DNA from: a virus
Strand: one strand, 5' to 3'
UHGV virus genome: UHGV-0247665
DNA length: 25,422 bases
Part shown: one piece after another, positions 1 to 25,181 of the stretch
Layout of the letters: each line of letters opens with the position of its first letter
How positions within the stretch are numbered: the first letter of the stretch is position 1
The notes under the pieces: generated by a model
Database searches by the model: none
Seen by the model: only the letters and a program-made list of their open reading frames with translations
Told to the model about the DNA's origin: nothing
Program-made: the position numbers and the translations under genes

Positions 1-1443
1 TCCATCAAATGATGCATCTGAATACGTATATACTGATTCACTGCCAGCAATTTTAAACTGTTTAACTGAAGTTATTCTCATCGACTTTTTATGTTTAAAT
101 GTCACTGAGCTTTCAGTATTACTTACAAGATCAATCTGAGGGCTATTCCTTATCGCGATTCCTGACTGTACATAAACGTTATTAAAGTGCGTTTTTTCAG
201 GATTTCCCTTCATTGAAAGGCTCCCGTCATTTTCTGTCAGTAGTAGTCCTTTTACCCTCCAATAGCCGACAATCTGTACGTTATCAATAACTGAATCACA
301 GCTATCGTATACATGCAACCCTATATCCCAGTCATCACCCAATGAATAAGAATCAGGGTTATTGTATCCTTCAATACCATTTTTACTTACCATTATTCTC
401 AGGTTGCGTAACTGTGATGCCCTGTTGATACTAACAGCTACGCTCATGGCTTTTGGTGTAGCAGGAGTAACACCTACAGAATCTTCATTTGTAAACTCAG
501 TGAACTTACAAGATATCCCTTCAACAATTTTAACTGGTCTTTCATTAGAGATGTTAAAAAAATATTTGTTTTTTTCTCCATCACCAGTAAATACAAGATG
601 GGTTCCTTTACTCCAACTTTTTAATAATCTTTCAGGCGCTGGTCTATATGTATCCCAATAATCAATGCCATCACCAATTAAAGACACTCCAGGAGGCACA
701 TCTATGTTCTTAGAAATCATCCATTTACCTGCAGGTATTCTAACGACACTTGCACCAGAATTTATCGCATTAATTAACCATTCAGACGCATCAACTTCAA
801 AATTTAATGCAGCATATCTTTGCTCAAACGGAACAAAATCAAGAGCGTTAACGTTATCCCGCATCTTATCCTGGAACGTTCGGTATACTGCTCCAGAACC
901 ATACTGAATAAACCAACCAAAACCACCAACAACTCCGGCGATTGCAGCATCAACATAATTGCGCATTGATCGATTATTTACAGCATCCTGCTCAAGTGAT
1001 GGATCTGCAAGGTTAGAAATTTTGTTTTGCTTTGCATCGTAATATTTTGCAAGCAAAGATGGTTTCATCAATGCACGTCTGAACCATCCAAAACATTGCT
1101 GGATCAGCATCGTCAGATAGTCAAAGGCATCTTCATGCACCTCGGGGAAAAATTTTCCCTGATTACGAAGATCAGTCTCCTGCACCACATCAAGCACACG
1201 ATCTATCGTAATTCGCCATCCAGCAGCAAGCGGCGACGGAAGAACAACAGAACCGCCACTATAAGTGCCCGCCCCTGTTACCGTATAACCGGTATCCAGA
1301 ACCAATTCTGTTACGTTCCCGTTCAGGTCAGACACCTGAACAACCAGGTCGGATTTTTTGAAAATACGGAAGGTATACGGAAATGATGTCGTAGCTCCGT
1401 TACCTGTGTATTCGTTGTGGTCAACTTCGGTTGAGACCGTCAT
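1..1443 (-). CDS. Tailspike / tail fibre protein, N-terminal 481 codons (3' end lies beyond the window start)
   Basis: ATG at 1443 (minus) with GGAG 7 nt upstream. My own minus-strand translation is open from 1443 to position 1; it is absent from the ORF track only because no stop falls inside the window. N-terminus MTVSTEVDHNEYTGNGATTSFPYTFRIFKKSDLVVQV... has the architecture of the T7 gp17-type N-terminal tail-attachment domain. A later segment (ALDFVPFEQRYAALNFEVDASEWLINAINSGASVVRIPAGKW) resembles the start of beta-helix depolymerase domains. GC content drops 3' of roughly nt 900. Confidence 0.8.
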   Translation of the reverse strand, partial: MTVSTEVDHNEYTGNGATTSFPYTFRIFKKSDLVVQVSDLNGNVTELVLDTGYTVTGAGTYSGGSVVLPSPLAAGWRITIDRVLDVVQETDLRNQGKFFPEVHEDAFDYLTMLIQQCFGWFRRALMKPSLLAKYYDAKQNKISNLADPSLEQDAVNNRSMRNYVDAAIAGVVGGFGWFIQYGSGAVYRTFQDKMRDNVNALDFVPFEQRYAALNFEVDASEWLINAINSGASVVRIPAGKWMISKNIDVPPGVSLIGDGIDYWDTYRPAPERLLKSWSKGTHLVFTGDGEKNKYFFNISNERPVKIVEGISCKFTEFTNEDSVGVTPATPKAMSVAVSINRASQLRNLRIMVSKNGIEGYNNPDSYSLGDDWDIGLHVYDSCDSVIDNVQIVGYWRVKGLLLTENDGSLSMKGNPEKTHFNNVYVQSGIAIRNSPQIDLVSNTESSVTFKHKKSMRITSVKQFKIAGSESVYTYSDASFDG

Positions 1444-1547
1444 GTTAAATCTCCAGATAGTCGCAGCACCCGTTGCGCCGCATATCTGGTTATTCTATTA
1501 CCTGAAAAACCACATATGGATAGAAAGACTGTAAATACGAATAGATA

Positions 1548-1562
1548 TTACCTTTCGGGTAA
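1548..1562. promoter_or_regulatory. TTACC-N5-GGTAA palindromic motif copy (ATTACC-tttcg-GGTAAT)
   Basis: In the divergent intergenic region between the tailspike start (1443) and the LexA box/85-aa gene; followed by TTGCAA. Confidence 0.5.
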
Positions 1563-1601
1563 TTTGCAAAACGTGCTGGATAGCAAACAAATTATTTGAT
1601 A

Positions 1602-1617
1602 CTGTATAAATATACAG
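1602..1617 (+). promoter_or_regulatory. LexA (SOS) box, CTGT-N8-ACAG
   Basis: 20-mer TACTGTATAAATATACAGTT (about 1600-1619) matches the E. coli LexA consensus TACTGTATATATATACAGTA at 18 of 20 positions with both CTGT and ACAG arms intact. It is preceded by TTGATA (1596-1601) and lies 21 nt upstream of the ATG at 1639. Confidence 0.75.
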
Positions 1618-1638
1618 TTATTACATGGAGAAGATAAG

Positions 1639-1896
1639 ATGCAGCAGTATCACTATCCACTGGAAGACGGATTTACCGAAAGGATTCACACGCCGGGAGG
1701 CGTCAGGTCACTGGTGGAGGGATCGCACTTGATGAAATTACTCCGGGATCTCGATAAGGATGGATTTAATGTCGATGGCCCACTTGCCGAACTGACTGCA
1801 CTGATTAACTACGTCACCAGCTCACAGATGTCTATGCAGGATCTACAAACACATCTCGACTATTGTGCCGAACAATTACGAAAACAAACCAGATAA
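1639..1896 (+). CDS. Small protein (85 aa) homologous to the C-terminal domain of the downstream antirepressor; candidate SOS-controlled antirepressor or modulator
   Basis: ORF track 1639..1896; GGAG at 1627-1630, 8 nt before the ATG. Its sequence (HTPGGVRSLVEGSHLMKLLRDLDKDGFNVDGPLAELT...DLQTHLDY) aligns with antirepressor residues HSPSGVLGLTENSLLMNLLNQLQEDGHDVSGAAAELT...DIQTHAEY at roughly 35-40% identity by eye. Confidence 0.7.
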   Translation: MQQYHYPLEDGFTERIHTPGGVRSLVEGSHLMKLLRDLDKDGFNVDGPLAELTALINYVTSSQMSMQDLQTHLDYCAEQLRKQTR

Positions 1897-1927
1897 GGTT
1901 TGCAATTACCAAATGGAGTGCTTATAT

Positions 1928-1942
1928 TTACCTTTGCGGTAA
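1928..1942. promoter_or_regulatory. TTACC-N5-GGTAA palindromic motif copy (TTTACC-tttgc-GGTAAA)
   Basis: Between the 85-aa ORF stop and the antirepressor leader; followed by TTTACA. Confidence 0.5.
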
Positions 1943-1977
1943 ATTTACATCGCACTCCTCTTGTGCCATAGTAATCG

Positions 1978-1999
1978 GGCACTGGCAAAATCCAGTGCC
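1978..1999 (+). other. Perfect 8-bp inverted repeat stem-loop (GGCACTGG-caaaat-CCAGTGCC) in the antirepressor leader
   Basis: Read directly from the sequence; no U-run follows, so it is not a classical terminator. Confidence 0.5.
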
Positions 2000-2035
2000 G
2001 GGATTGGCGTCACGAGTTACTACAGAGGCACATAT

Positions 2036-2055
2036 GCCGCATAAGCGGTTTTTTT
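2036..2055 (+). terminator. Weak intrinsic terminator-like hairpin (gCCGC-ataa-GCGGt followed by TTTTTTT)
   Basis: 4-5 bp stem followed by seven T residues, 140 nt downstream of the 85-aa ORF and about 150 nt upstream of the antirepressor start. Confidence 0.35.
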
Positions 2056-2208
2056 ATGTGTAAAGCGCACCTATTCTATGGTGGGCTGTGTGGGGGCACC
2101 GAAAGGTGCGCCGGGTCCTTTGTAGCCGGTTACGCCAACCCTGCACAGTTCACCACCAACCGATTGGCGTCGGTAGTGGTGATTAACCTAACTACAAAGG
2201 TGATCGCT

Positions 2209-2895
2209 ATGACTGCTAACGTAACCCCATCTGTTTTTCATTTTGAATCAGAAGCAACCATTCGAGCCATTGTTATTGATGGAAATCCTTGGTTTGTTGC
2301 CAAAGACGTTATTAAAGCTCTTCAACTGACAAACCCCACTATGTCAATAAAATCTCTTGATGATGATGAAAGGGCTAAATTTAACTTAGGCCGTCAAGGC
2401 GAAACCAATATTATCAACGAGTCAGGCCTCTACACACTGTTCCTCCGCTGCCGCGATGCGGTGACACCAGGCACTACCCCCTACCGCTTTCGTAAATGGG
2501 TTACAGGTGAGGTTCTTCCTCAGATCCGCCGCACCGGAAGCTACATTAAAAACTCGCTCCCGCAGGAAGAACGCATAAAGATGGTTGCCGACCAGGTAGC
2601 CAACGCCACGGCGTCAGCAGTAATGCAGGCGATGAAGATAGAGAACAAAACCTACAGCGCCCCGCTGAAGCCCGGCTACCGCAGTTTGATTCACTCGCCG
2701 TCTGGTGTTCTCGGCCTGACGGAGAACTCACTGCTGATGAATCTGCTGAACCAGTTACAGGAAGACGGGCACGACGTATCGGGCGCGGCGGCGGAACTGA
2801 CCACCATGTTCTGCTACATCGTCGGTGTGAGTAAATGCCTGCGTGATATCCAGACCCACGCGGAATACATCAACGACAAGGCAGGGGTCTTCTGA
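2209..2895 (+). CDS. Phage antirepressor with N-terminal Bro-N domain (228 aa from ATG 2209)
   Basis: In frame within ORF track 2056..2895. The ATG at 2209 is preceded by AAAGGTGA. N-terminus SVFHFESEATIRAIVIDGNPWFVAKDVIKAL...NIINESGLYTLFLRCRD...FRKWVTGEVLPQIRRTGSY matches the Bro-N consensus. The sequence upstream of 2209 within the tracked ORF is structured leader, not coding. Confidence 0.85.
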   Translation: MTANVTPSVFHFESEATIRAIVIDGNPWFVAKDVIKALQLTNPTMSIKSLDDDERAKFNLGRQGETNIINESGLYTLFLRCRDAVTPGTTPYRFRKWVTGEVLPQIRRTGSYIKNSLPQEERIKMVADQVANATASAVMQAMKIENKTYSAPLKPGYRSLIHSPSGVLGLTENSLLMNLLNQLQEDGHDVSGAAAELTTMFCYIVGVSKCLRDIQTHAEYINDKAGVF

Positions 2896-2904
2896 CAGAA
2901 CGGC

Positions 2905-2931
2905 GGCACAGGGATGTGCCTTTAAATAATT
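2905..2931 (+). terminator. Intrinsic terminator after the antirepressor gene (GGCACA-GGGA-TGTGCC then TTTAAATAATT)
   Basis: 6-bp GC-rich stem with a 4-nt loop and a T/A-rich tail, starting 10 nt after the stop at 2893-2895. Confidence 0.5.
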
Positions 2932-2961
2932 CTGTACAGATTGCAGGTGAATAGCGTACTA

Positions 2962-2976
2962 TTACCCCAAAGGTAA
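2962..2976. promoter_or_regulatory. TTACC-N5-GGTAA palindromic motif copy (ACTATTACC-ccaaa-GGTAAG)
   Basis: About 120 nt upstream of the two-gene cassette start; followed by TTGATT. Confidence 0.5.
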
Positions 2977-3093
2977 GAAAGTTGATTTGTAACATTTTAG
3001 TTTGTAGTTACCGTGATGGTTTTGCTGCAGAAAGTTAACTAGTCAAAATCACACCGTATGTAAGTCACGTCTGTTCCCGTATGGGAGGATGAT

Positions 3094-3312
3094 ATGTTTA
3101 AATTTGATATGCAACTCAACCAAAACTATGCCTCTTTTTACCATCCAGAAACTGGTAAAGCTGTTTTCGTTGACTCTTTCGATAATGAAGAATTTGATAT
3201 CAGAATTGGGACCCTACGCCAAAGTAAGCATGTTGCTACTGTACGTGCATCCAATGATGATGAATTAAATCAAAAAATAAGTGAGGCGACCTCCCGTTAT
3301 CTATGTCTATAA
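3094..3312 (+). CDS. Hypothetical protein (72 aa), first gene of an AT-rich two-gene cassette
   Basis: ORF track 3094..3312; strong SD GGGAGG 5 nt before the ATG. Local GC is well below the flanking phage DNA. No recognisable family. Confidence 0.6.
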   Translation: MFKFDMQLNQNYASFYHPETGKAVFVDSFDNEEFDIRIGTLRQSKHVATVRASNDDELNQKISEATSRYLCL

Positions 3313-3680
3313 CAGAACAACAACTCATTGATCTTGAGGATGAGATTAACGAGATCTTGCAAGAAGATGCGGCAAGAATTCACTTTTCATTTCACGCAGC
3401 ATATGAACGCCTGAACGACGAGAGGAACAAACCGCCAATTACTCTTGCTGAGCTTGAAGATGTGTTTAAATCGTTTATATCTGCACATCTGCAGACTGTT
3501 TTGGATTTTGCTGAAGGTACAACTTTCACCATAAAGTGCAACAAAAGCGCCCTTCATTTTCCTTGCGCCATTGTACACGAAAGAGAGTTTGGGAAAACGT
3601 GGGTTATCCAAAACGTCATTACAGCCATGAGGAAAGTGGGATTCAAGTCTAAAGATTCTATTATCCTCGAAGTTAATTAA
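3303..3680 (+). CDS. Hypothetical acidic protein (125 aa), second gene of the cassette, translationally coupled
   Basis: ORF track 3303..3680. Its ATG at 3303 overlaps the upstream stop at 3310-3312 (ATGTCTATAA) with no independent SD in range. Followed directly by a terminator. Confidence 0.65.
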   Translation: MSITEQQLIDLEDEINEILQEDAARIHFSFHAAYERLNDERNKPPITLAELEDVFKSFISAHLQTVLDFAEGTTFTIKCNKSALHFPCAIVHEREFGKTWVIQNVITAMRKVGFKSKDSIILEVN

Positions 3681-3701
3681 GCCCGCACTGAGGGCTTTTT
3701 T
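3679..3701 (+). terminator. Intrinsic terminator (AAGCCC-gcactga-GGGCTT then TTTT)
   Basis: 6-bp stem with a 7-nt loop and a U-run immediately after the TAA at 3678-3680. Confidence 0.6.
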
Positions 3702-3773
3702 ATGGACGAAACAAAAGTCAGTGCTACACTCATTGACGCCACATTGAGGTGGCTTATAGATGGAAATTTCACA

Positions 3774-3935
3774 ATGAAAAAAGCATTTGCTGCACTGTTC
3801 GTTTTGTTGTCTCTGGTAGCTTCAACTCAGGCCTTTGCCGGTCGTTGTCAGCACGACAGCGACACTGCTGCTGACGGCTCCCGCTGCGGTGGGCGTTCTG
3901 CGGATTCCCGCCCGGGTGGCGGTGGCATTCGTTAA
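3774..3935 (+). CDS. Small secreted protein (53 aa precursor; Sec-type signal peptide, about 31-aa Gly/Arg-rich mature part with two Cys)
   Basis: Internal ATG of ORF track 3702..3935. MKKAFAALFVLLSLVASTQAFA is a canonical signal peptide with an AxA cleavage motif; the mature part is GRCQHDSDTAADGSRCGGRSADSRPGGGGIR. Possible promoter TTGACG (3733-3738) and TATAGA (3755-3760). The SD is weak. Confidence 0.5.
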   Translation: MKKAFAALFVLLSLVASTQAFAGRCQHDSDTAADGSRCGGRSADSRPGGGGIR

Positions 3936-3958
3936 AAACAAGGCCGCGAAAGCGGCCT
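3931..3958 (-). terminator. Intrinsic terminator for the minus-strand lipoprotein gene (7-bp GC stem with GNRA-type loop, U-run on the minus strand)
   Basis: AGGCCGC-GAAA-GCGGCCT at 3941-3958. On the minus strand it is followed by TTGTTTTTAAC. It sits between the convergent genes ending at 3935 (+) and 3967 (-). Confidence 0.55.
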
Positions 3959-3970
3959 GTGACATGTCAC
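3959..3970. repeat. 12-bp perfect palindrome GTGACATGTCAC (copy 1)
   Basis: Exact match; contains the TGA stop of the lipoprotein gene. Confidence 0.6.
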
Positions 3971-4347
3971 GCAACGCAATTATTACCGCGCCATGTAACA
4001 TTTTTAATAATCTTATCAGCACCAAACTCAACGTAAACAGAGCAACTGAAATGGAGTGTATAACCGCCATCAGTTGTTGCGTATGTGTTTGAATATATAG
4101 TATTACCAATTAGATTAGACGTAGTATTATACGTTGTGGTTTGTGGTACGTTATAACTACCAGAGCTTGAGTAAACATACACTCTGTTTCCATCTGGAGA
4201 TGTAAGCTCTCCCTGAGGATACCCCCACTGCTGAACCATTGCGTCTATACTCTGCCCGCGCCACGTAAGCATATTTCTTTCAAACTGTGCAGCTGACTGG
4301 CATCCAACGAGAAGCATAAATCCAAAAATCAAAAATACTTTTCTCAT
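3967..4347 (-). CDS. Outer-membrane lipoprotein (126 aa); candidate lysogenic-conversion or superinfection-exclusion protein
   Basis: In frame within ORF track 3967..4383. The ATG at 4347 is preceded by GGGGG with a 5-nt spacer. N-terminus MRKVFLIFGFMLLVGCQSA carries a lipobox (LLVGC). The mature part is Ser/Thr/Asn/Tyr-rich. The stop codon lies inside the GTGACATGTCAC palindrome. Confidence 0.75.
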   Translation of the reverse strand: MRKVFLIFGFMLLVGCQSAAQFERNMLTWRGQSIDAMVQQWGYPQGELTSPDGNRVYVYSSSGSYNVPQTTTYNTTSNLIGNTIYSNTYATTDGGYTLHFSCSVYVEFGADKIIKNVTWRGNNCVA

Positions 4348-4432
4348 AATTACCCCTATCATGGAAAAACAGCACCAATCCACAAATTAACTAGTTATTT
4401 TATTATTCTTCCGAACAATACAATTCCGAATA

Positions 4433-4555
4433 CTACAAAGCCGAACCATGCCGCTGCACGCAACAGAGATTCCAATTGAAACCCATTTTTATCAAAATGT
4501 ATGAATAGCATAAAAACGCTGCACATATTAGTACAATAAAAGTTATTTGAACCAT
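4433..4555 (-). CDS. Small hydrophobic membrane peptide (about 40 aa), not in the ORF track
   Basis: Tandem ATGs at 4558 and 4555 (minus) lie 2 and 5 nt after the SD AAAGGAG, which itself directly follows the TAA of the 824-aa gene. Reading frame MMVQITFIVLICAAFLCYSYILIKMGFNWNLCCVQRHGSAL*. It is in a different frame from ORF-track entry 4395..4583, which lacks an SD. Confidence 0.45.
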   Translation of the reverse strand: MVQITFIVLICAAFLCYSYILIKMGFNWNLCCVQRHGSAL

Positions 4556-4566
4556 CATATCTCCTT

Positions 4567-7041
4567 TTATTGCGGAGTGACATCCTGTGGTCGCCACCAG
4601 TATGTCTGGTTAAACTCTTTCTTCGAACGTTGCTCCATTTTACGCAAATAGCCTGGTGAAAAATACTCCTGCATCTGGTTAAAGATCATGTGATCGAGAG
4701 CCGCCTTCAAGTACCAGAGATTCGCACCAGGCATCAAACCTTTCCCCAGCTTCACCAGATCACCACCAGTCTGCTCACTCTTCCCTTCCACAGCATTTAA
4801 CGGTATGCCCTGAGCAATCTTCACTACGTCATCAACCAGACCAGCTACCGGGCCAAGCATCGACGCCAGCGCGCCGCTTCCGTACCTAGTGTGATCTGAC
4901 AATAAAAAGTCACCGTAAAGGCCAAGACCACCACCTTTCAGTAGAGCACCAAGCCAGAATTTTGCGGCATCTTCTCCTGTCATCTCTCGAGGATTACGAC
5001 CAGACGCAAGGTCGTTAAGTTGCTGCGACAAAGCGCCAAGAATGGTCGTACTGGCAATAAACGTCGCAATATATGCCGCACGCCCACCAGCAGACGGCAT
5101 ACCCATAGCGCGTGACCAGTGACGCATAACAACCGAGATAGGGAACGATTTAAACAGGAAAACACTTCTCGTTAATTCACCTTTCCATGTTCCACGCTGA
5201 ATACCAGAACCGGTTATCAGTTGCTCACGTGCTCCCGGTGTAATAACAGCCATATCAACTTCTTCAGTTACGGCACCGAGCAGTTTACGCATTGCCTCAA
5301 ATTTCACGCGTTCAGGCTCACCAAGATGTTTAACTGCTGAATCAGAGATACGCATAATGCTTTCCGGTGTCAGCATCGTATTATTACCGTTCCCCCAGTC
5401 CTCCTGTTTCGCCAGCTTCCATACGCTCCAGTCTGTGTCAGTAATCCCTTTGCTTTTCAGGATACGAAAATCAGAGTCATCGAGGCTACGAAGGTCTGGT
5501 GTCCGTGACACTACTTCTCCCAGGCTTCCCATCATGGTTACGCCATAGGCGCGCTTGTGCGCATCTGACCATGCTGTAAGCCCACTGGCACGCATTACCG
5601 CCGTTGCCGCCCAACGAGACACTGACGGCCCCATATTATCCATCGCCCAGCGGTTAACGCTGCCAAGTAGAGATTCCATCGCCAGACCAGCGCGGCGCGC
5701 CCGCGCAAGTTCTGTACGGTTCGTTGGGTCCATAGCTTCAAGCTGGTTGCGGAATAACTGGTTCATTGGAAGGTTGGTAACCTTCGCAGACAGATACATG
5801 GTTCCAAGATCAGAGAACGATGACAGCAACGCGGATCCGAGTCTGCTGGCAACCAGCCAGTTGCGGATATTGTCAGACCATCGCGCGATGTGCGGATTCG
5901 CTACAGGCTGTGTCTTTCCGGAAATAAAGTTGTACAGATTCTCTGTGTTGTTCGCCAGCCGCTCGACTTTACCGGTTTTACTCGGGTTAGCTGTTGCCGT
6001 TTCTGCCTTCACCTGATCAAGAAGAGAGCGGAAAACATGATCGGGGTTTGGGCCATATGTTTCCACCAGTGCAATATCTTTACTGATACCTTCCAGGTGA
6101 CCGACCATGATTTCCCATAGAGAGCGATCGCCATAAAGTTGCTGATATTGCAGATAGGAATCTGCATCTTTGAAATGTATCTGTCGTGATGCATTACCAC
6201 GGTTAGCACGTGCGCCGGAAATTCGCATTCCGGTATCAGTAAGCTTATTCAGCCCACCAGTAGCGATCGTGTTATAAGCCTCTCCAAGAAATGAAGACAA
6301 CTCGGCATCGTTCATCAGTTGTCCATCGGCTCGGATATAATATTTGCGATCCAGCTTACCTATAACATCGCTAACCCACTTATCCTTTGATACTGCCCCA
6401 ACCTTTTCCATAGAATGATGTTGAGGGATCCCCCAGTTTTCGAGATAGCCAATGTCCCCACCAGCATCATTAAACCGGCGGCGCAGCAGCTCTGTAACTT
6501 CTCTCCACGCCTTAGCACCGTTTCTTGCTTTAGCATTGCCAGTATTTTGCCCCCGCATTTCATATACCAGGTCACGTACGCCCGCTTCATCTTCAAACAG
6601 ACCAAAAAAGCGAGGATCAACTGCTTCGAATGCCTCCTGCAATTGACTCAATGCATAATCACGGGTGGCTTTTGTTCTGGATTCAACAGAGAGGAAATTA
6701 GATTTACCGTCTGCATTAAAAGCTATAGTACGGTTAAGAGCGCCAAGTTTCCCATCAGCCCCTTGATAGCTATTGATAAATTTATCCAATCTCTGACGCG
6801 CGGCTATAGTGAGAGCCACACGACGTTTCTTTAATGCCGCTTCTCGCTGTAATTCTTCAGATGCCAATTGTGCTGCTCGATATAGCCGCTCTGATTCGGA
6901 AAGTTGTCGCCACGACATAGGGTCATCACGAGCAATGGAGCGCATATTTCGATAAATGCGGTCTTCAATGTTCTGTATTTCTCGCGCCGTTAACATGCGC
7001 TGCGCCGCCTGCTGAACCGCTTGTATACATTCCTGTCTCAT
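4567..7041 (-). CDS. Internal virion / ejection protein (824 aa)
   Basis: ORF track. Last large gene of the minus-strand core-protein block, with a Gly-rich hydrophobic C-terminal region typical of membrane-inserting ejection proteins. Functional analogue of T7 gp14-16 by position and size only. Confidence 0.75.
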   Translation of the reverse strand: MRQECIQAVQQAAQRMLTAREIQNIEDRIYRNMRSIARDDPMSWRQLSESERLYRAAQLASEELQREAALKKRRVALTIAARQRLDKFINSYQGADGKLGALNRTIAFNADGKSNFLSVESRTKATRDYALSQLQEAFEAVDPRFFGLFEDEAGVRDLVYEMRGQNTGNAKARNGAKAWREVTELLRRRFNDAGGDIGYLENWGIPQHHSMEKVGAVSKDKWVSDVIGKLDRKYYIRADGQLMNDAELSSFLGEAYNTIATGGLNKLTDTGMRISGARANRGNASRQIHFKDADSYLQYQQLYGDRSLWEIMVGHLEGISKDIALVETYGPNPDHVFRSLLDQVKAETATANPSKTGKVERLANNTENLYNFISGKTQPVANPHIARWSDNIRNWLVASRLGSALLSSFSDLGTMYLSAKVTNLPMNQLFRNQLEAMDPTNRTELARARRAGLAMESLLGSVNRWAMDNMGPSVSRWAATAVMRASGLTAWSDAHKRAYGVTMMGSLGEVVSRTPDLRSLDDSDFRILKSKGITDTDWSVWKLAKQEDWGNGNNTMLTPESIMRISDSAVKHLGEPERVKFEAMRKLLGAVTEEVDMAVITPGAREQLITGSGIQRGTWKGELTRSVFLFKSFPISVVMRHWSRAMGMPSAGGRAAYIATFIASTTILGALSQQLNDLASGRNPREMTGEDAAKFWLGALLKGGGLGLYGDFLLSDHTRYGSGALASMLGPVAGLVDDVVKIAQGIPLNAVEGKSEQTGGDLVKLGKGLMPGANLWYLKAALDHMIFNQMQEYFSPGYLRKMEQRSKKEFNQTYWWRPQDVTPQ

Positions 7042-18655: not shown

Positions 18656-20331
18656 TGTGATTGCCCACCCTGACCACTAACTGCATTCGCCATAGCTGAC
18701 AAAACACTCGGATCCGAAGTTTTAGCTTCGCTTAGCGTCTTGGCACCCTGTGCCGCCGCCATCCCCATCGCCATCATTTGTTGCTGCTGTTGTTGCTGTG
18801 CCCGTTGCTGGCGAGCCTGCTCAACCTGTTCCTGCGGAACAATGACGGTTGGAGACACTCCGGACATATCAGCGAATGCATCGATCGCCTGATCAACGTT
18901 GAGTTTGTCGAGAGCTTCTGGTTTCGCTTGCGCAAGTTGACCAATGAAGTTGACCGTAGACGCCAGACTGGACAGGCCGATAGACTTCTGCGCCTGAGCC
19001 ATGACGGAAATGTATTCGACCTTCAGGGGCATACCTTCCATTGCGTCAGGCGGTGGCGGCAGCATGTTTTTACGCACCATCATCGAGAAAGCGCGGTCAA
19101 TGAGAGGATTAAGACATTCGTCGTTCAGACGCTCCAGAACCGGCCCCAACATCAGAAGTTTTTCTTCTTTCATTTCGATCACCGCTTCAACAGGCATCGA
19201 GCGGGTATTGATGTTCTGCAACATCATGAACAGATCGACAAAGTAGGCGCTGTTAATGATTTGACGGGTGTCCTGAATGTCTGCCACCAAATCTGCTGTA
19301 CTGGGGTTAACCAGATAAGCAGGCCTGAAGCCATCCTGACCAGTAATCTGATCGATATACGTGATGTCGCCAGGAAGAAGGGAGGCGCGCTGATTCTTGA
19401 GGGAAGTCGGAGCAACCATCGGCGGATTGGTGGCTTTATCAATCAACTGCGACTTGCGCTTCTGGAGAAGCTGCAATGCCTTAACAGGTCCAAGCGCCAG
19501 CATACCCGGGCATGATGATCCATAAACATCTTCGCCATTAACTTCCCAGCGCGGAGCCATAATTGGAAACTCATCAAATCCGGACTCACGCAACAACTTG
19601 TCGTTATCGCCACCAACCTCGTAATAAACCGATTTGAATGGCTTGTTCTTGCTATCCAGCTTCGATGTATCGCGGTCAATGTTCGGGTAAACCGAATGCA
19701 TCACGTCAATCCACTTCTCGTAGGTGCCGCTTTCCCACATGCTTTTTACGGATTCGCTGACGTTATTTAGCCCGAACTCCTGAACAAGCTGACGAACAGT
19801 CATAGAGAACTTGCGAAAACAGGTGTCCACACTGCCACGAGGTGAGTTAGCCAGGTAGTAACTGCCTATCGGGAATGGCATTGTGCGAATGATGTCCTCG
19901 TCATCCTCCAGCACCGCCATTGCACCAGTGCTGTATGTGCCGAGGCTTCCGTATAACTGCGGAAGAGACTGGTAGAGATTCGACTTATTGAACATATCGT
20001 TCATGCGGTTCTGCACCGCCTCGAGCCACAACTTAACAGGACCATAATCCATCATTTCAGGATCTGGCGTAGCCAGGCGAAACCACGGACGCGCAGGGCT
20101 TGTGATGCCTGACATCATGCCGCTGGCGAGAGTGCGCGCCGCCATAGTCCCGGTCGAATCAATAATGCGTGTATTGCGTCGATCGTTACGGTTGACCTCA
20201 GAAGTCAGAAAGCGGGAACCACGCGGGTTGATGTAATCACTCAACTCGCGCCAGTGCGGCTCGAACGACTGACGCTCGCTTTCAAGTTGTGCGAACTGTT
20301 TGTTCAATCGCTCTTTAGTTGTTTCCGCCAT
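18652..20331 (-). CDS. Portal (head-tail connector) protein, 559 aa
   Basis: ORF track. About 560 aa, downstream of terminase. Its C-terminal Gln/Ala/Met-rich tail (QQQQQQQMMAMGMAAAQGA) resembles the T7 gp8-type portal C-terminus. Confidence 0.85.
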   Translation of the reverse strand: MAETTKERLNKQFAQLESERQSFEPHWRELSDYINPRGSRFLTSEVNRNDRRNTRIIDSTGTMAARTLASGMMSGITSPARPWFRLATPDPEMMDYGPVKLWLEAVQNRMNDMFNKSNLYQSLPQLYGSLGTYSTGAMAVLEDDEDIIRTMPFPIGSYYLANSPRGSVDTCFRKFSMTVRQLVQEFGLNNVSESVKSMWESGTYEKWIDVMHSVYPNIDRDTSKLDSKNKPFKSVYYEVGGDNDKLLRESGFDEFPIMAPRWEVNGEDVYGSSCPGMLALGPVKALQLLQKRKSQLIDKATNPPMVAPTSLKNQRASLLPGDITYIDQITGQDGFRPAYLVNPSTADLVADIQDTRQIINSAYFVDLFMMLQNINTRSMPVEAVIEMKEEKLLMLGPVLERLNDECLNPLIDRAFSMMVRKNMLPPPPDAMEGMPLKVEYISVMAQAQKSIGLSSLASTVNFIGQLAQAKPEALDKLNVDQAIDAFADMSGVSPTVIVPQEQVEQARQQRAQQQQQQQMMAMGMAAAQGAKTLSEAKTSDPSVLSAMANAVSGQGGQSQ

Positions 20332-20552: not shown

Positions 20553-20642
20553 ATCAATGACTCCGTACGCAATTAAATTATCACCAATTTAACCACATAT
20601 GATTTATTTATCGTAGATAGTTGACATTTAACGCATGAATTA

Positions 20643-23802: not shown

Positions 23803-23813
23803 TAGTACCATGC

Positions 23814-23839
23814 AAAATAAAGCCGCCATAGTTGGCGGC
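23814..23839 (-). terminator. Intrinsic terminator on the minus strand between the 115-aa gene and the terminase operon (GCCGCCA-n4-TGGCGGC then UUUAUUUU)
   Basis: 7-bp GC stem at 23822-23839; the minus-strand U-run corresponds to plus-strand A-run 23814-23821. Confidence 0.5.
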
Positions 23840-23880
23840 AGTATTCAAAACCCATCAAATTCATCATGCATAATCTACTC

Positions 23881-23892
23881 GTGACATGTCAC
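23881..23892. repeat. 12-bp perfect palindrome GTGACATGTCAC (copy 3)
   Basis: Exact match; contains the TGA stop of the 115-aa gene, upstream of the terminase operon. Confidence 0.6.
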
Positions 23893-24236
23893 ACTATTAA
23901 TTTCGTTTCATGCCAGCCTTTAGTCACCCAGCATTGCGAGTCACCATTACACGGGCATGAATTAACGGGAACTCTCTCGCCGCACTTACCGCAACGTTTT
24001 CTGCTGATCGATTTTATACGCCCGCGCACACGTGCATCATCCTGGCGGATCAGCAGCGCGATGTACTCGGACATTTCATAGGGATCGCGACCAGGGCGCC
24101 GGGCGGCGCAGTTCCGCGCCAGCATTTCCTGCTCCTGCTTATCCAGCACCAGTTCAATTTTGCGCTCACCGGCGGCGGACTGCCGAGCGCGCTGCGCGGC
24201 TTTGCGTTCTGCGGGGGATTTAGCCACGAATCGCAC
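23889..24236 (-). CDS. Basic protein with C-terminal Cys cluster (zinc-ribbon-like), 115 aa
   Basis: ORF track (GTG start). CGKCGERVPVNSCPCNGDSQC near the C-terminus; Lys/Arg-rich N-terminus. The stop codon is embedded in the GTGACATGTCAC palindrome. Confidence 0.5.
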   Translation of the reverse strand: MRFVAKSPAERKAAQRARQSAAGERKIELVLDKQEQEMLARNCAARRPGRDPYEMSEYIALLIRQDDARVRGRIKSISRKRCGKCGERVPVNSCPCNGDSQCWVTKGWHETKLIV

Positions 24237-24342: not shown

Positions 24343-25181
24343 TACTTCGCCTCCTGCGGCGGTTCCGGTAGCGGCATCCAGAACAAGGCGTTCCCTAACC
24401 ACGATAAAGTGCCATCGCTCAACTCCACGTATTCCCCTTGTACCTGTCCTGCCATATACTCGCCGTGCTTTGAATAAATTAAAATCCAATCATCTTGAGG
24501 GGGCATTCGCTCACTACAGCTTATCCAACCATCCGGAGTTACCGGAGAGTTGCCTGCCAGTCTACGCAAAACAGCCTTAACAGCCTCAATACGGTCATCA
24601 TCGCAATTTTCCAGCGTATCTATGCGGTCGAGCATGATGATGGCGTTATCAATATCAGGATTGCCGGTCCACTCATTACCGCGATTGGATTCGGCAGCCT
24701 GGTTGCCAGATGCTGGCTGATTGTCGGCTTTACCCAGTCTGTCGTCGCTGCATGAATGCCCTTCCAGCCAGGCCAATGCTTGTCGCATGAAATACGCAAT
24801 ATGTTTGCCGTGGTAATCGTCTTCATCGATGTGAAAAGCGATACTACGAATGTATTCAATTGCGTTTTCAATGGCCTCTAACGCTATCGGCGCTGGCGGA
24901 GTGGTATATAGTTTTCGACATTTGTATATCCAACCGGCATGGTCAGGCGTGTCTGTAAAACGCAAATCGTCTTCGTAGCACTCACGACTACGTTCTTTCC
25001 ATTCCGTCCACGGAACACCGCTATTCCAGGTGGGGCGAGTGCAGGACTGATACAGAACAGGCTCTGCTTCCAGCGATGCCAGTGCAATCCGTGCCAGTTC
25101 CATTTGTTCGCCACGGGTAAGTCCGTTTTCAAGCGGATTTTTAATGAACAATTCAATACGTTCTTTGGTAATAGTGGTCAT
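24342..25181 (-). CDS. Phage protein with C-terminal DUF551-type domain (279 aa)
   Basis: ORF track; SD GAGGA 7 nt before the ATG. The C-terminal signature DGWISCSERMPPQDDWILIY...ALFWMPLPEPP matches my recollection of DUF551. Confidence 0.65.
   Translation of the reverse strand: MTTITKERIELFIKNPLENGLTRGEQMELARIALASLEAEPVLYQSCTRPTWNSGVPWTEWKERSRECYEDDLRFTDTPDHAGWIYKCRKLYTTPPAPIALEAIENAIEYIRSIAFHIDEDDYHGKHIAYFMRQALAWLEGHSCSDDRLGKADNQPASGNQAAESNRGNEWTGNPDIDNAIIMLDRIDTLENCDDDRIEAVKAVLRRLAGNSPVTPDGWISCSERMPPQDDWILIYSKHGEYMAGQVQGEYVELSDGTLSWLGNALFWMPLPEPPQEAK

Follow-up and report, generated by a model that had tools for sequence, protein, structure and literature searches.

Fold-back inhibition in IS10 and IS50, a mechanism associated with Davis, Simons and Kleckner in 1985, reportedly protects the transposase gene from outside transcription. 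Other leader hairpins act on the message itself. RNase III processing at such sites is known from phage T7 and the lambda N leader, while a stem flush with the 5' end is known to stabilise mRNAs such as ompA. Two described systems concern antirepressor genes in temperate phages. In SPC32H, LexA is said to control Ant, as reported by Kim and Ryu in 2013, and to our knowledge the work on that phage does not describe a tailspike leader hairpin. In P22, the mnt-arc-ant genes of immI lie directly before tailspike gene 9; ant has the same orientation as gene 9, and late transcription passes through immI.

Here, a comparable junction was analysed in a 25,422-nucleotide stretch of viral DNA (UHGV virus genome UHGV-0247665), referred to below as the window. 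Judged by its similarities, the window is a phage or prophage of the phiV10/epsilon15 type (Uetakevirus). Over bases 1-4700 it shares 99.9% identity with Escherichia phage Phi05_1387 B, and parts of this span are 92-95% identical to phiV10, HEMP4, ZX5 and others. The region 1380-1700 was found in 532 of 5426 complete E. coli genomes (~10%). At this locus E. coli FDAARGOS_1257 shows 99.7% identity, and related leaders also occur in prophages of Salmonella, Citrobacter, Enterobacter and Erwinia as well as in many metagenome contigs. An earlier sequence-only reading had described positions 1444-1638 as a divergent control region, and this description holds: a tailspike gene on the minus strand and a LexA-controlled antirepressor gene on the plus strand stand back to back.

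1 to 1443, minus strand: 5' part of the tailspike gene, with its ATG at 1443-1441, running off the left end of the window
1639 to 1896, plus strand: ant, encoding a small antirepressor of 85 aa of the SPC32H type, a homologue of epsilon15 gp19, with a Shine-Dalgarno (SD) sequence GGAG at 1627-1630

The translated N-terminus of the tailspike (MTVSTEVDHNEYTGNG...) is a head-binding domain of the epsilon15 gp20 type. The gene matches phrog_1171 (tail spike, E = 3e-172) and has annotated homologues in phiV10, Tyrion and epsilon15. Residues 2-84 of Ant match PDB 5D50 chain E, 'Anti-repressor protein' (E = 4e-47), and the protein also matches phrog_450. On the 3' side of ant follow isrK and C4 antisense-RNA matches and then a Bro-N antirepressor. 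Because the late structural operon, encoded on the minus strand, stops at a terminator (3958-3941, minus), the antirepressor module is an inverted insert that separates it from the tailspike gene. The oac gene of phiV10 is oriented towards ant, its end lying 12 nt from the stop codon of the tailspike gene.

The locus therefore resembles P22 immI in that an antirepressor module separates the late structural genes from the tailspike gene of a temperate podovirus. It differs from P22 in the inverted orientation of the module and in a predicted promoter and a leader hairpin that belong to the tailspike gene itself. The resemblance to the LexA-Ant-Rep switch of SPC32H and epsilon15 is also clear, with the same divergent module, the Ant match, a LexA box over the promoter and a repressor-type operator nearby, but this switch accounts for the plus-strand half only.

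The minus-strand half contains the inverted repeat CCAGATA (1453-1459) / TATCTGG (1483-1489), present exactly as the sequence-only reading had claimed. On the tailspike mRNA, the order is 5'-CCAGAUA (1489-1483), UAUCUGG (1459-1453), AGAUUUAAC and AUG (1443-1441), and three elements of this leader are relevant to translation.

1451 to 1454, minus strand: tailspike SD sequence GGAG, 7 nt before the AUG, read from the sequence
1453 to 1489, minus strand: leader RNA hairpin of 15 bp, predicted by folding and covariation, containing the repeat as its outer helix
1447 to 1450, minus strand: AUUU, which in the minimum free energy (MFE) structure can pair with GAAU at 1495-1492, the last four bases of the predicted -10 hexamer

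The hairpin consists of a 7-bp outer helix (1489-1483 with 1459-1453) and a GC-rich inner helix of 8 bp (1482-1475 with 1469-1462), separated by a 2-nt bulge at 1461-1460 and capped by a 5-nt loop (1474-1470). Folding of the tailspike leader, which had been suggested as a check, gave a stable structure with an MFE of -22.4 kcal/mol (z = -3.6; 1 of 200 shuffles was equal). With a 4-bp GAAU/AUUU extension, the AG of the SD comes to lie in a 2x2 internal loop, so that the hairpin encloses the SD. Since GAAU belongs to the -10 hexamer, this extension is possible only in RNA that begins upstream of the promoter. The SD itself, GGAG(A), is kept in nearly all relatives. That the repeat overlaps it, as had been stated, is correct for the GG of GGAG (1454-1451), which the 3' arm pairs; in the window's clade just two of the four SD bases lie in the stem. 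The partial sequestration that had been proposed is substantial only when AUUU (1450-1447) pairs with the GAAU of the -10 hexamer.

Taken alone, the bare 7-bp repeat is weakly unusual, since a perfect 7-mer inverted repeat with a 3-40 nt loop arises somewhere in the 195 bp in 41% of dinucleotide shuffles, and one no more than 16 nt from the start codon in 5%. Covariation in relatives shows the predicted hairpin to be more than chance. An Rfam covariance-model scan (E-value mode) of 1200-4700 found nothing at 1440-1500, and its sole matches were C4, isrK and c4-a1b1 at 1966-2160. A leader peptide or small ORF was also considered and rejected, as a 30-aa ORF at 1498-1590 (minus) and other stop-free stretches vary between clades.

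For the comparison with relatives, 176 loci encoding this tailspike N-terminus were gathered from reference genomes, IMG/VR and metagenomes. Hits from a tblastn search with an approximate query (first 50 residues exact) served as pointers to loci only, without identity values. The E. coli AST205 locus is a deletion-scarred prophage and was uninformative. Most enterobacterial loci follow one recurring order: divergent ant, LexA box, GTGCTGGATAG, ATTACC-N5-GGTAAT, TTCATA, a 17-nt spacer, TA(G/A)A(A/C)T, hairpin, GGAG and ATG. This layout was seen in E. coli, Salmonella, Citrobacter, Enterobacter, Erwinia, Buttiauxella and Rahnella, while loci from Proteus and Pantoea deviate from it. The stem sequence varies by clade with the hairpin present throughout, and in every clade its 3' arm either borders on the SD or covers it. 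The outer helices (5' arm, then 3' arm) read as follows.

E. coli clade: CCAGAUA with UAUCUGG
L116: CGAUA with UAUCG
L117: CGGUA with UGCCG
L108: AUCUCC with GGAGAU
L123: AAUGUCUCCA with UGGAGACAUU
L131: UGCUCCU with AGGAGCA
TAAACT clade: CUGUCCAG with CUGGAGACAG

Full anti-SD pairing is found in L108, L123, L131 and the TAAACT clade. Representatives of eight other clades with differing stems folded with z scores from -1.1 to -4.4. Alignment with MAFFT followed by RNAalifold recovered a 4-bp core and missed the outer helix because the helix register shifts between clades, and for this reason a covariance-model alignment was used instead. The model was built from six gap-free E. coli-clade sequences, and 30 distinct relatives were aligned to it. 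In this alignment, which is fitted to the structure being tested, 91.8% of cells were paired, compared with 81.1% in column shuffles and 24-49% with slid partners. Changes on both sides occurred in 11 of 15 pairs, and none of 500 shuffles of the 30-sequence alignment reached the observed values. One clear compensatory path links A-U (L116), G.U (L118) and G-C (L117). Together, the comparisons show a hairpin under selection as an RNA on the tailspike-sense strand.

The assignment to that strand draws on two kinds of evidence. In 37 of 44 distinct leaders the sense RNA gives the more stable fold, and the means are -17.4 kcal/mol for sense and -13.6 kcal/mol for antisense. In addition, the model alignment holds 75 G.U cells against 8 A.C cells when read on the sense strand, although many of the G.U cells are inherited within one clade; each sense-strand G.U is an A.C mismatch on the opposite strand. 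For instance, phiV10 (CCGGAUA) and L141 (UCGGAUA) differ from the window by sense-strand wobbles alone. The evidence on strand speaks against a terminator on the plus strand, a cruciform and a DNA palindrome bound by protein. A sense-strand intrinsic terminator was rejected separately: it lacks a U-tract, the stem being followed by AGAUUUAAC.

The 5' arm of the hairpin coincides with a predicted promoter, whose elements are listed here.

1492 to 1497, minus strand: predicted -10 hexamer TAGAAT of the tailspike promoter (P_ts), from conservation
1515 to 1520, minus strand: predicted -35 hexamer TCCATA (in most clades TTCATA), at a spacing of exactly 17 nt to the -10
1508 to 1521, no strand assigned: near-palindrome AACCACATATGGAT (AACCATATATGGTT in relatives), overlapping the -35
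1485 to 1487, minus strand: predicted P_ts transcription start, the 5th to 7th nt after the -10 by promoter geometry, falling within the outer helix on its 5' arm

Four bases of the -10 (T1, A2, A4 and T6) are invariant in 24 divergent relatives, among the variants TAGAAT, TAAACT, TAAAAT and TAAGAT. At the 17-nt spacing, the -35 reads TTCATA in 27, TCCATA in nine and TACATA in two of 43 distinct leaders (38/43 together). Such a pattern of conservation is typical of a sigma-70 promoter. The near-palindrome recurs 18-21 nt upstream of -10-like hexamers before a portal-region gene and the lysis cassette, and the window holds a second copy at 20591-20601 (minus).

How closely the helix is fixed to this promoter can be seen across the 43 distinct leaders. 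In every one of them pairing sets in ahead of the expected start, at -5 to +3 counted from the first post-hexamer base; in 31, it begins inside the -10 hexamer (at its last base or deeper). In L108, L123 and L131, the anti-SD (AUCUCC, GUCUCCA and GCUCCU, respectively) fills the gap from the -10 to the predicted +1 purine. Because the predicted start falls inside the 5' arm, as it does in all 43 distinct leaders, RNA begun at P_ts should be unable to form the SD-covering pairs. Conversely, RNA begun upstream of P_ts presumably exists and matters, because pairing to promoter bases would otherwise not be maintained. By partition-function calculation, the SD of read-through RNA is unpaired with a mean probability of 0.33, compared with 0.61 for starts 5-10 nt after the hexamer; for the window itself the values were 0.33 (read-through) and 0.70 (promoter-initiated). 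Were transcription to start at 1487 (an A that follows a C), the 5' end of the RNA would coincide exactly with the base of a 13-bp stem, leaving no 5' overhang.

With the predicted start at 1485-1487 inside the 5' arm, the sequestration put forward in the sequence-only reading would probably be confined to read-through transcripts. That reading had named a tailspike start downstream of the repeat as evidence against itself, and the predicted position touches on this point. We infer the distinction between promoter-initiated and read-through RNA wholly from consensus geometry; no start-site or transcriptome data for Uetakevirus were found in the literature searched, which did not include Kim and Ryu 2013, Kropinski 2007 and Kim 2016.

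From these observations, we tentatively suggest that translation of the tailspike depends on the origin of the transcript, with the hairpin covering the SD in read-through RNA only. Transcripts from P_ts (+1 at ~1485-1487) would be made without the SD-covering part of the 5' arm. At the very 5' end they would retain the inner GC-rich stem, a feature that would favour stability, and their SD would be free. Transcripts arriving from upstream, by late-operon read-through across the inverted antirepressor module, would carry the whole 5' arm. Such RNA would fold back over the SD and be either poorly translated or cut there.

The suggested arrangement parallels IS10 and IS50 in two respects: the 3' arm of an inverted repeat covers the ribosome-binding site, and the gene's own promoter (predicted here) lies in or against the 5' arm, so that only upstream transcripts would form the inhibitory stem. 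Unlike in those elements, the gene concerned is a phage late structural gene beside an inverted lysogeny module rather than a transposase gene, half of the SD is in the stem in the window's clade, and the start site and translational effect are predictions. The leader also shares with ompA-type 5' stabilisers an inner GC-rich stem placed 0-4 nt from the predicted 5' end of the promoter-initiated mRNA. The helix, however, extends upstream of the predicted start and over the SD, neither of which a pure stabiliser needs.

Some points weigh against fold-back control. The predicted change in SD accessibility is modest in the window's clade. Read-through is perhaps rare unless late transcription is antiterminated, because the terminator at 3958-3941 (minus) intervenes. 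Furthermore, the benefit of silencing the tailspike on read-through RNA is not evident.

A second case is provided by the leader of the lysis cassette, which sits outside the window and was examined in the window's own phage and in six others, among them phiV10, epsilon15, Tyrion and SPN1S. This leader forms a sense-strand hairpin of 22-24 bp, at -25 to -38 kcal/mol versus -7 to -20 for the antisense strand. The -10 of that unit (TATAAT or TATGAT in six of the seven) lies in the 5' arm of the hairpin, whose 3' arm extends as far as the SD. Inverted lysogeny modules precede both the tailspike gene and the lysis cassette, and the two units share an upstream set made up of the ATTACC-N5-GGTAAT operator, a AACCATATATGGTT-like element over the -35, and the -10. 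The occurrence of a promoter embedded in the 5' arm at both places supports a fold that depends on transcript origin.

By analogy between the two leaders, it is conceivable, though rather doubtful, that Uetakevirus phages hide an anti-SD arm in the promoter at the tailspike gene and the lysis cassette alike and in this way insulate both from read-through. If true, this would be a phage-encoded counterpart of IS10 fold-back inhibition, operating at two late-region restarts after inverted lysogeny modules. Structural and lysis genes would then be shielded from read-through across antirepressor and O-antigen-conversion inserts.

Two other readings share much of this evidence with transcript-dependent fold-back. 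In one, which is that of the sequence-only reading, all tailspike mRNA would start upstream of 1489 or at the stem base, and the ever-present hairpin would lower translation initiation and/or protect the 5' end from RNase E. We consider a constitutive leader of this type unlikely, although structure, covariation and strand bias fit it equally well, a start at 1487 would bring the 13-bp stem flush with the 5' end, and less translation would be sensible for a protein present in few copies per virion. What speaks against it is the position of the helix, which enters the conserved -10 hexamer in 31/43 distinct leaders. The whole anti-SD of several clades is situated between the -10 and the expected +1 and would be absent from P_ts RNA. 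A constitutive hairpin consequently requires a second, upstream promoter, and no good consensus was found there.

The other reading, a distinctly unlikely one in our estimation, would make the hairpin an RNase III site in a long late transcript, where cutting would detach the tailspike cistron from the antisense-ant RNA upstream and leave the SD accessible. The hairpin does stand directly upstream of an SD in a podovirus late region and offers 15-19 bp with the extension, interrupted by internal loops, in the manner of the T7 and lambda N-leader hairpins, which are likewise stem-loops with internal loops immediately 5' of the SD. In addition, the epsilon15 RefSeq record annotates the analogous, longer lysis-cassette hairpin as 'RNaseIII mRNA processing'. 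Compared with the T7 and lambda structures, the tailspike stem is shorter (15-19 bp) and unannotated, and cleavage here is hypothetical. The criterion for RNase III is ~20 bp of near-continuous duplex, and its substrates typically span about two turns; the helix has 15 bp and a 4-bp extension, is interrupted by a bulge and an internal loop, and falls short of that length. The epsilon15 annotators left the tailspike hairpin unmarked, and cleavage leaves the pinning of the 5' arm to the promoter unexplained.

Antiterminated read-through of the late region, which would suit an RNase III site, is hinted at by a layout resembling Q/PR'/tR' upstream of the terminase (23892-23812), comprising a gene for a Cys-rich regulator, a promoter-like site at 23892-23863 and a terminator at 23839-23822. 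The Cys-rich candidate late regulator (115 aa, 23889-24236) had no Pfam or PDB sequence match, and its AlphaFold model was poor (pLDDT 62.5, pTM 0.37). Processing by RNase III is compatible with fold-back and does not exclude it. That a genuine RNA structure exists at the SD on the sense strand is a robust conclusion common to fold-back, a constitutive leader and RNase III processing, which part ways only over the transcripts that carry it and the consequences.

An intrinsic terminator on the plus strand (the stem followed by TTATTCTATT) would stop tailspike-antisense transcripts, possibly coming from the convergent O-antigen conversion gene, before they reach ant, thus avoiding prophage induction. 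Insulating ant in this way would be useful because phiV10 oac ends so near the tailspike stop and faces ant, and the plus-strand RNA of the hairpin does fold (-18.1 kcal/mol, z = -4.1) ahead of a T-rich stretch. This reading is nevertheless very improbable, given that the wobbles lie on the other strand (75 G.U versus 8 A.C) and that the antisense fold is the weaker one in 37/44 leaders, often by 7-10 kcal/mol. The T-rich tail (UUAUUCUAUU) is the conserved -10 hexamer read backwards and is interrupted, the antisense stem contains A.C mismatches, and the terminator scan made no call. Least credible of all is a chance inverted repeat or a DNA-level protein-binding palindrome without an RNA role, since, frequent as 7-bp repeats are in shuffles of the region (41%), neither the folding z of -3.6 nor the compensatory changes across clades with differing stem sequences suit chance, and a DNA palindrome cannot give a strand-specific G.U bias.

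The tailspike leader hairpin is unannotated in the reference records of epsilon15, phiV10 and Tyrion; the LexA-Ant module and the repressor sites have been described or annotated before. The hairpin belongs to a known general kind, that of SD-occluding or processing leader hairpins, and does not represent a new principle. Its promoter-embedded geometry and the repetition at the lysis cassette make for a testable hypothesis of moderate interest, in a family of prophages that is very common. The tailspike is a host-range determinant that is swapped as a cassette: the head-binding N-terminus is common to tailspikes with many C-terminal domains, and the same leader precedes them. A leader that combines a promoter with a translation-gating or processing hairpin would matter for the engineering of phiV10-based reporter and therapeutic phages. 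It would also help to explain how late genes are still expressed correctly after inverted 'moron' insertions into a late operon.

The remaining elements of the control region belong to the ant side or are shared between the two genes.

1600 to 1619, no strand assigned: LexA box TACTGTATAAATATACAGTT, with the core CTGT-N8-ACAG at 1602-1617, overlapping the ant promoter
1577 to 1605, plus strand: predicted ant promoter, TGGATA at 1577-1582, a 17-nt spacer and TACTGT at 1600-1605, from conservation
1547 to 1563, no strand assigned: palindrome ATTACC-TTTCG-GGTAAT, a dispersed candidate operator between the two -35 hexamers

Both the LexA box (1600-1619) and the TTACC-N5-GGTAA palindrome (1548-1562) that the sequence-only reading had listed can be read from the sequence. 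CTGT-N8-ACAG is kept at the same place in 10 of 16 loci examined. A second LexA half-site, within a direct repeat at 1528-1551 / 1601-1624, was considered and rejected, as it is not conserved in phiV10 or other clades. GTGCTGGATAG and its 17-nt spacing to TACTGT are conserved in phiV10, Tyrion and an epsilon15-like phage, and this conserved spacing makes TGGATA-N17-TACTGT the best reading of the putative ant promoter; an alternative pairs TTGATA (1596-1601) with TATTAC (1619-1624).

The proposal that tailspike and antirepressor expression are co-ordinated from one compact region did not fare as well. The LexA box overlaps the ant promoter only, ~105 bp from the tailspike -10, and by this overlap would act on the divergent ant gene alone. 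The palindrome is not specific to this region either. TTACC-N5-GGTAA occurs at six sites in the window against 0.48 expected, a number reached in none of 100 shuffles, and phiV10 carries at least 10 intergenic copies, three of them between rep and a cro-like gene and others before the tailspike, lysis, portal-region and integrase genes. The epsilon15 RefSeq record NC_004775 marks the identical motif as repressor-binding, including the homologous site (19895-19911, in the gp19-gp20 gap), which is annotated 'protein_bind repressor', and recurrence at promoters and in the immunity region is consistent with this annotation of the palindrome as the Uetakevirus repressor operator. The region thus appears to hold two separate controls and a shared operator, through which co-ordination by the repressor is possible. 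Measured from the centre of the palindrome, which lies upstream of both, the predicted P_ts start is ~70 bp away and that of ant ~57 bp.

Downstream of ant, the small SPC32H-type antirepressor gene, lies a second antirepressor gene, preceded by three RNA family matches:

1966-2018, plus strand: c4-a1b1 targets, Rfam match
1979-2055, plus strand: isrK, Rfam match (65.5 bits)
2074-2160, plus strand: C4 antisense RNA, Rfam match (79.5 bits)
2056/2200-2895, plus strand: open reading frame of the Bro-N antirepressor

The three Rfam matches (1966-2160) are flanked by the LexA-controlled ant and the Bro-N gene, a grouping that resembles immI of P1 and P7 and would make Bro-N an RNA-controlled second antirepressor. 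Because the last ~80 residues (C-terminal) of the Bro-N protein share homology with the small Ant, with phrog_450 matching both, this phage seems to carry two antirepressors under different control that have one Rep-binding domain in common.

The TTACC-N5-GGTAA palindrome, annotated in epsilon15 as a repressor-binding site, occurs six times in the window (0.48 expected), at 1548, 1928, 2962, 20643, 23770 and 23788. These copies are scattered over the genome, in an arrangement that recalls the C1 sites of P1 or the stoperators of mycobacteriophages. Three copies occupy the rep/cro-like intergenic region of phiV10, and others lie immediately 3' of terminators.

Another element, the near-palindrome AACCATATATGGTT (CATATGTGGTT), was found at the following positions:

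1508-1521 and 20591-20601, minus strand: window copies
24735-24750, 33131 and 35116: phiV10 copies

It stands 18-21 nt from the -10-like hexamers that precede the tailspike gene, the portal region and the lysis genes, and elsewhere its copies adjoin operators. It may be a late-activator site or a second type of operator. Matches of this type number 5 in the window, where 1.8 would be expected; 4 of 100 shuffles have at least as many, so the count is not significant alone.

In a deletion-scarred prophage of E. coli AST205 (L183; NZ_AP043614 2687096-2692238), the stretch that runs from the tailspike gene through its hairpin to the -35 of its promoter is fused directly to a truncated gene for replication protein P. 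The fusion junction falls at the CATATGTGG element.

Three copies of TGGATAG were also noted:

1517-1523, plus strand: copy overlapping the tailspike -35 region
1577-1583, plus strand: copy forming the predicted ant -35
1653-1659, inverted: copy within the ant coding region

Outside the E. coli clade, only the copy at 1577 (GTGCTGGATAG) is conserved.

At the tailspike start, GAGAUU, which overlaps the Shine-Dalgarno sequence (SD), has a second possible partner, GGUCUC, within codons 2-4 (ACG GUC UCA). In several MFE predictions this pairing gives a hairpin:

1432-1453, minus strand: predicted weak hairpin enclosing the tailspike AUG

Nucleotide-level conservation of ATGACGGTCTCAACC, in this start region, is high.

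Beyond the window, leader hairpins were also found in the lysis cassettes of seven phages, on the sense strand:

phiV10 (L176) 24730-24830; L177 24742-24842; L178-L182: lysis-cassette leaders

The hairpin has 22-24 bp (-25 to -38 kcal/mol), with the promoter -10 inside the 5' arm and a 3' arm that stops at the SD of the cassette's first gene. Compensatory changes occur among the phages, and the epsilon15 annotation gives this hairpin as an RNase III site.

Upstream of the terminase gene, the features are:

23889-24236 (within 23812-24236), minus strand: Cys-rich 115-aa 'transcriptional regulator' (phrog_536)
23892-23863, minus strand: promoter-like site GTGACA-18-CATGAT, after this reading frame
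23839-23822, minus strand: strong terminator, only ~24 nt downstream of the -10

After the terminator come two operators, with the terminase gene next. This layout is like that of lambda Q/PR'/tR' and suggests that the late genes are under antitermination control. The Cys-rich product had no match in Pfam or PDB, and its predicted structure was too poor for classification.

The late operon closes with one further gene, ahead of the terminator at 3958-3941:

3967-4383, minus strand: 138-aa reading frame of unknown function (phrog_3716) that carries a lipoprotein-type signal (…LLVGC…)

This gene may be a moron or a candidate for superinfection exclusion.
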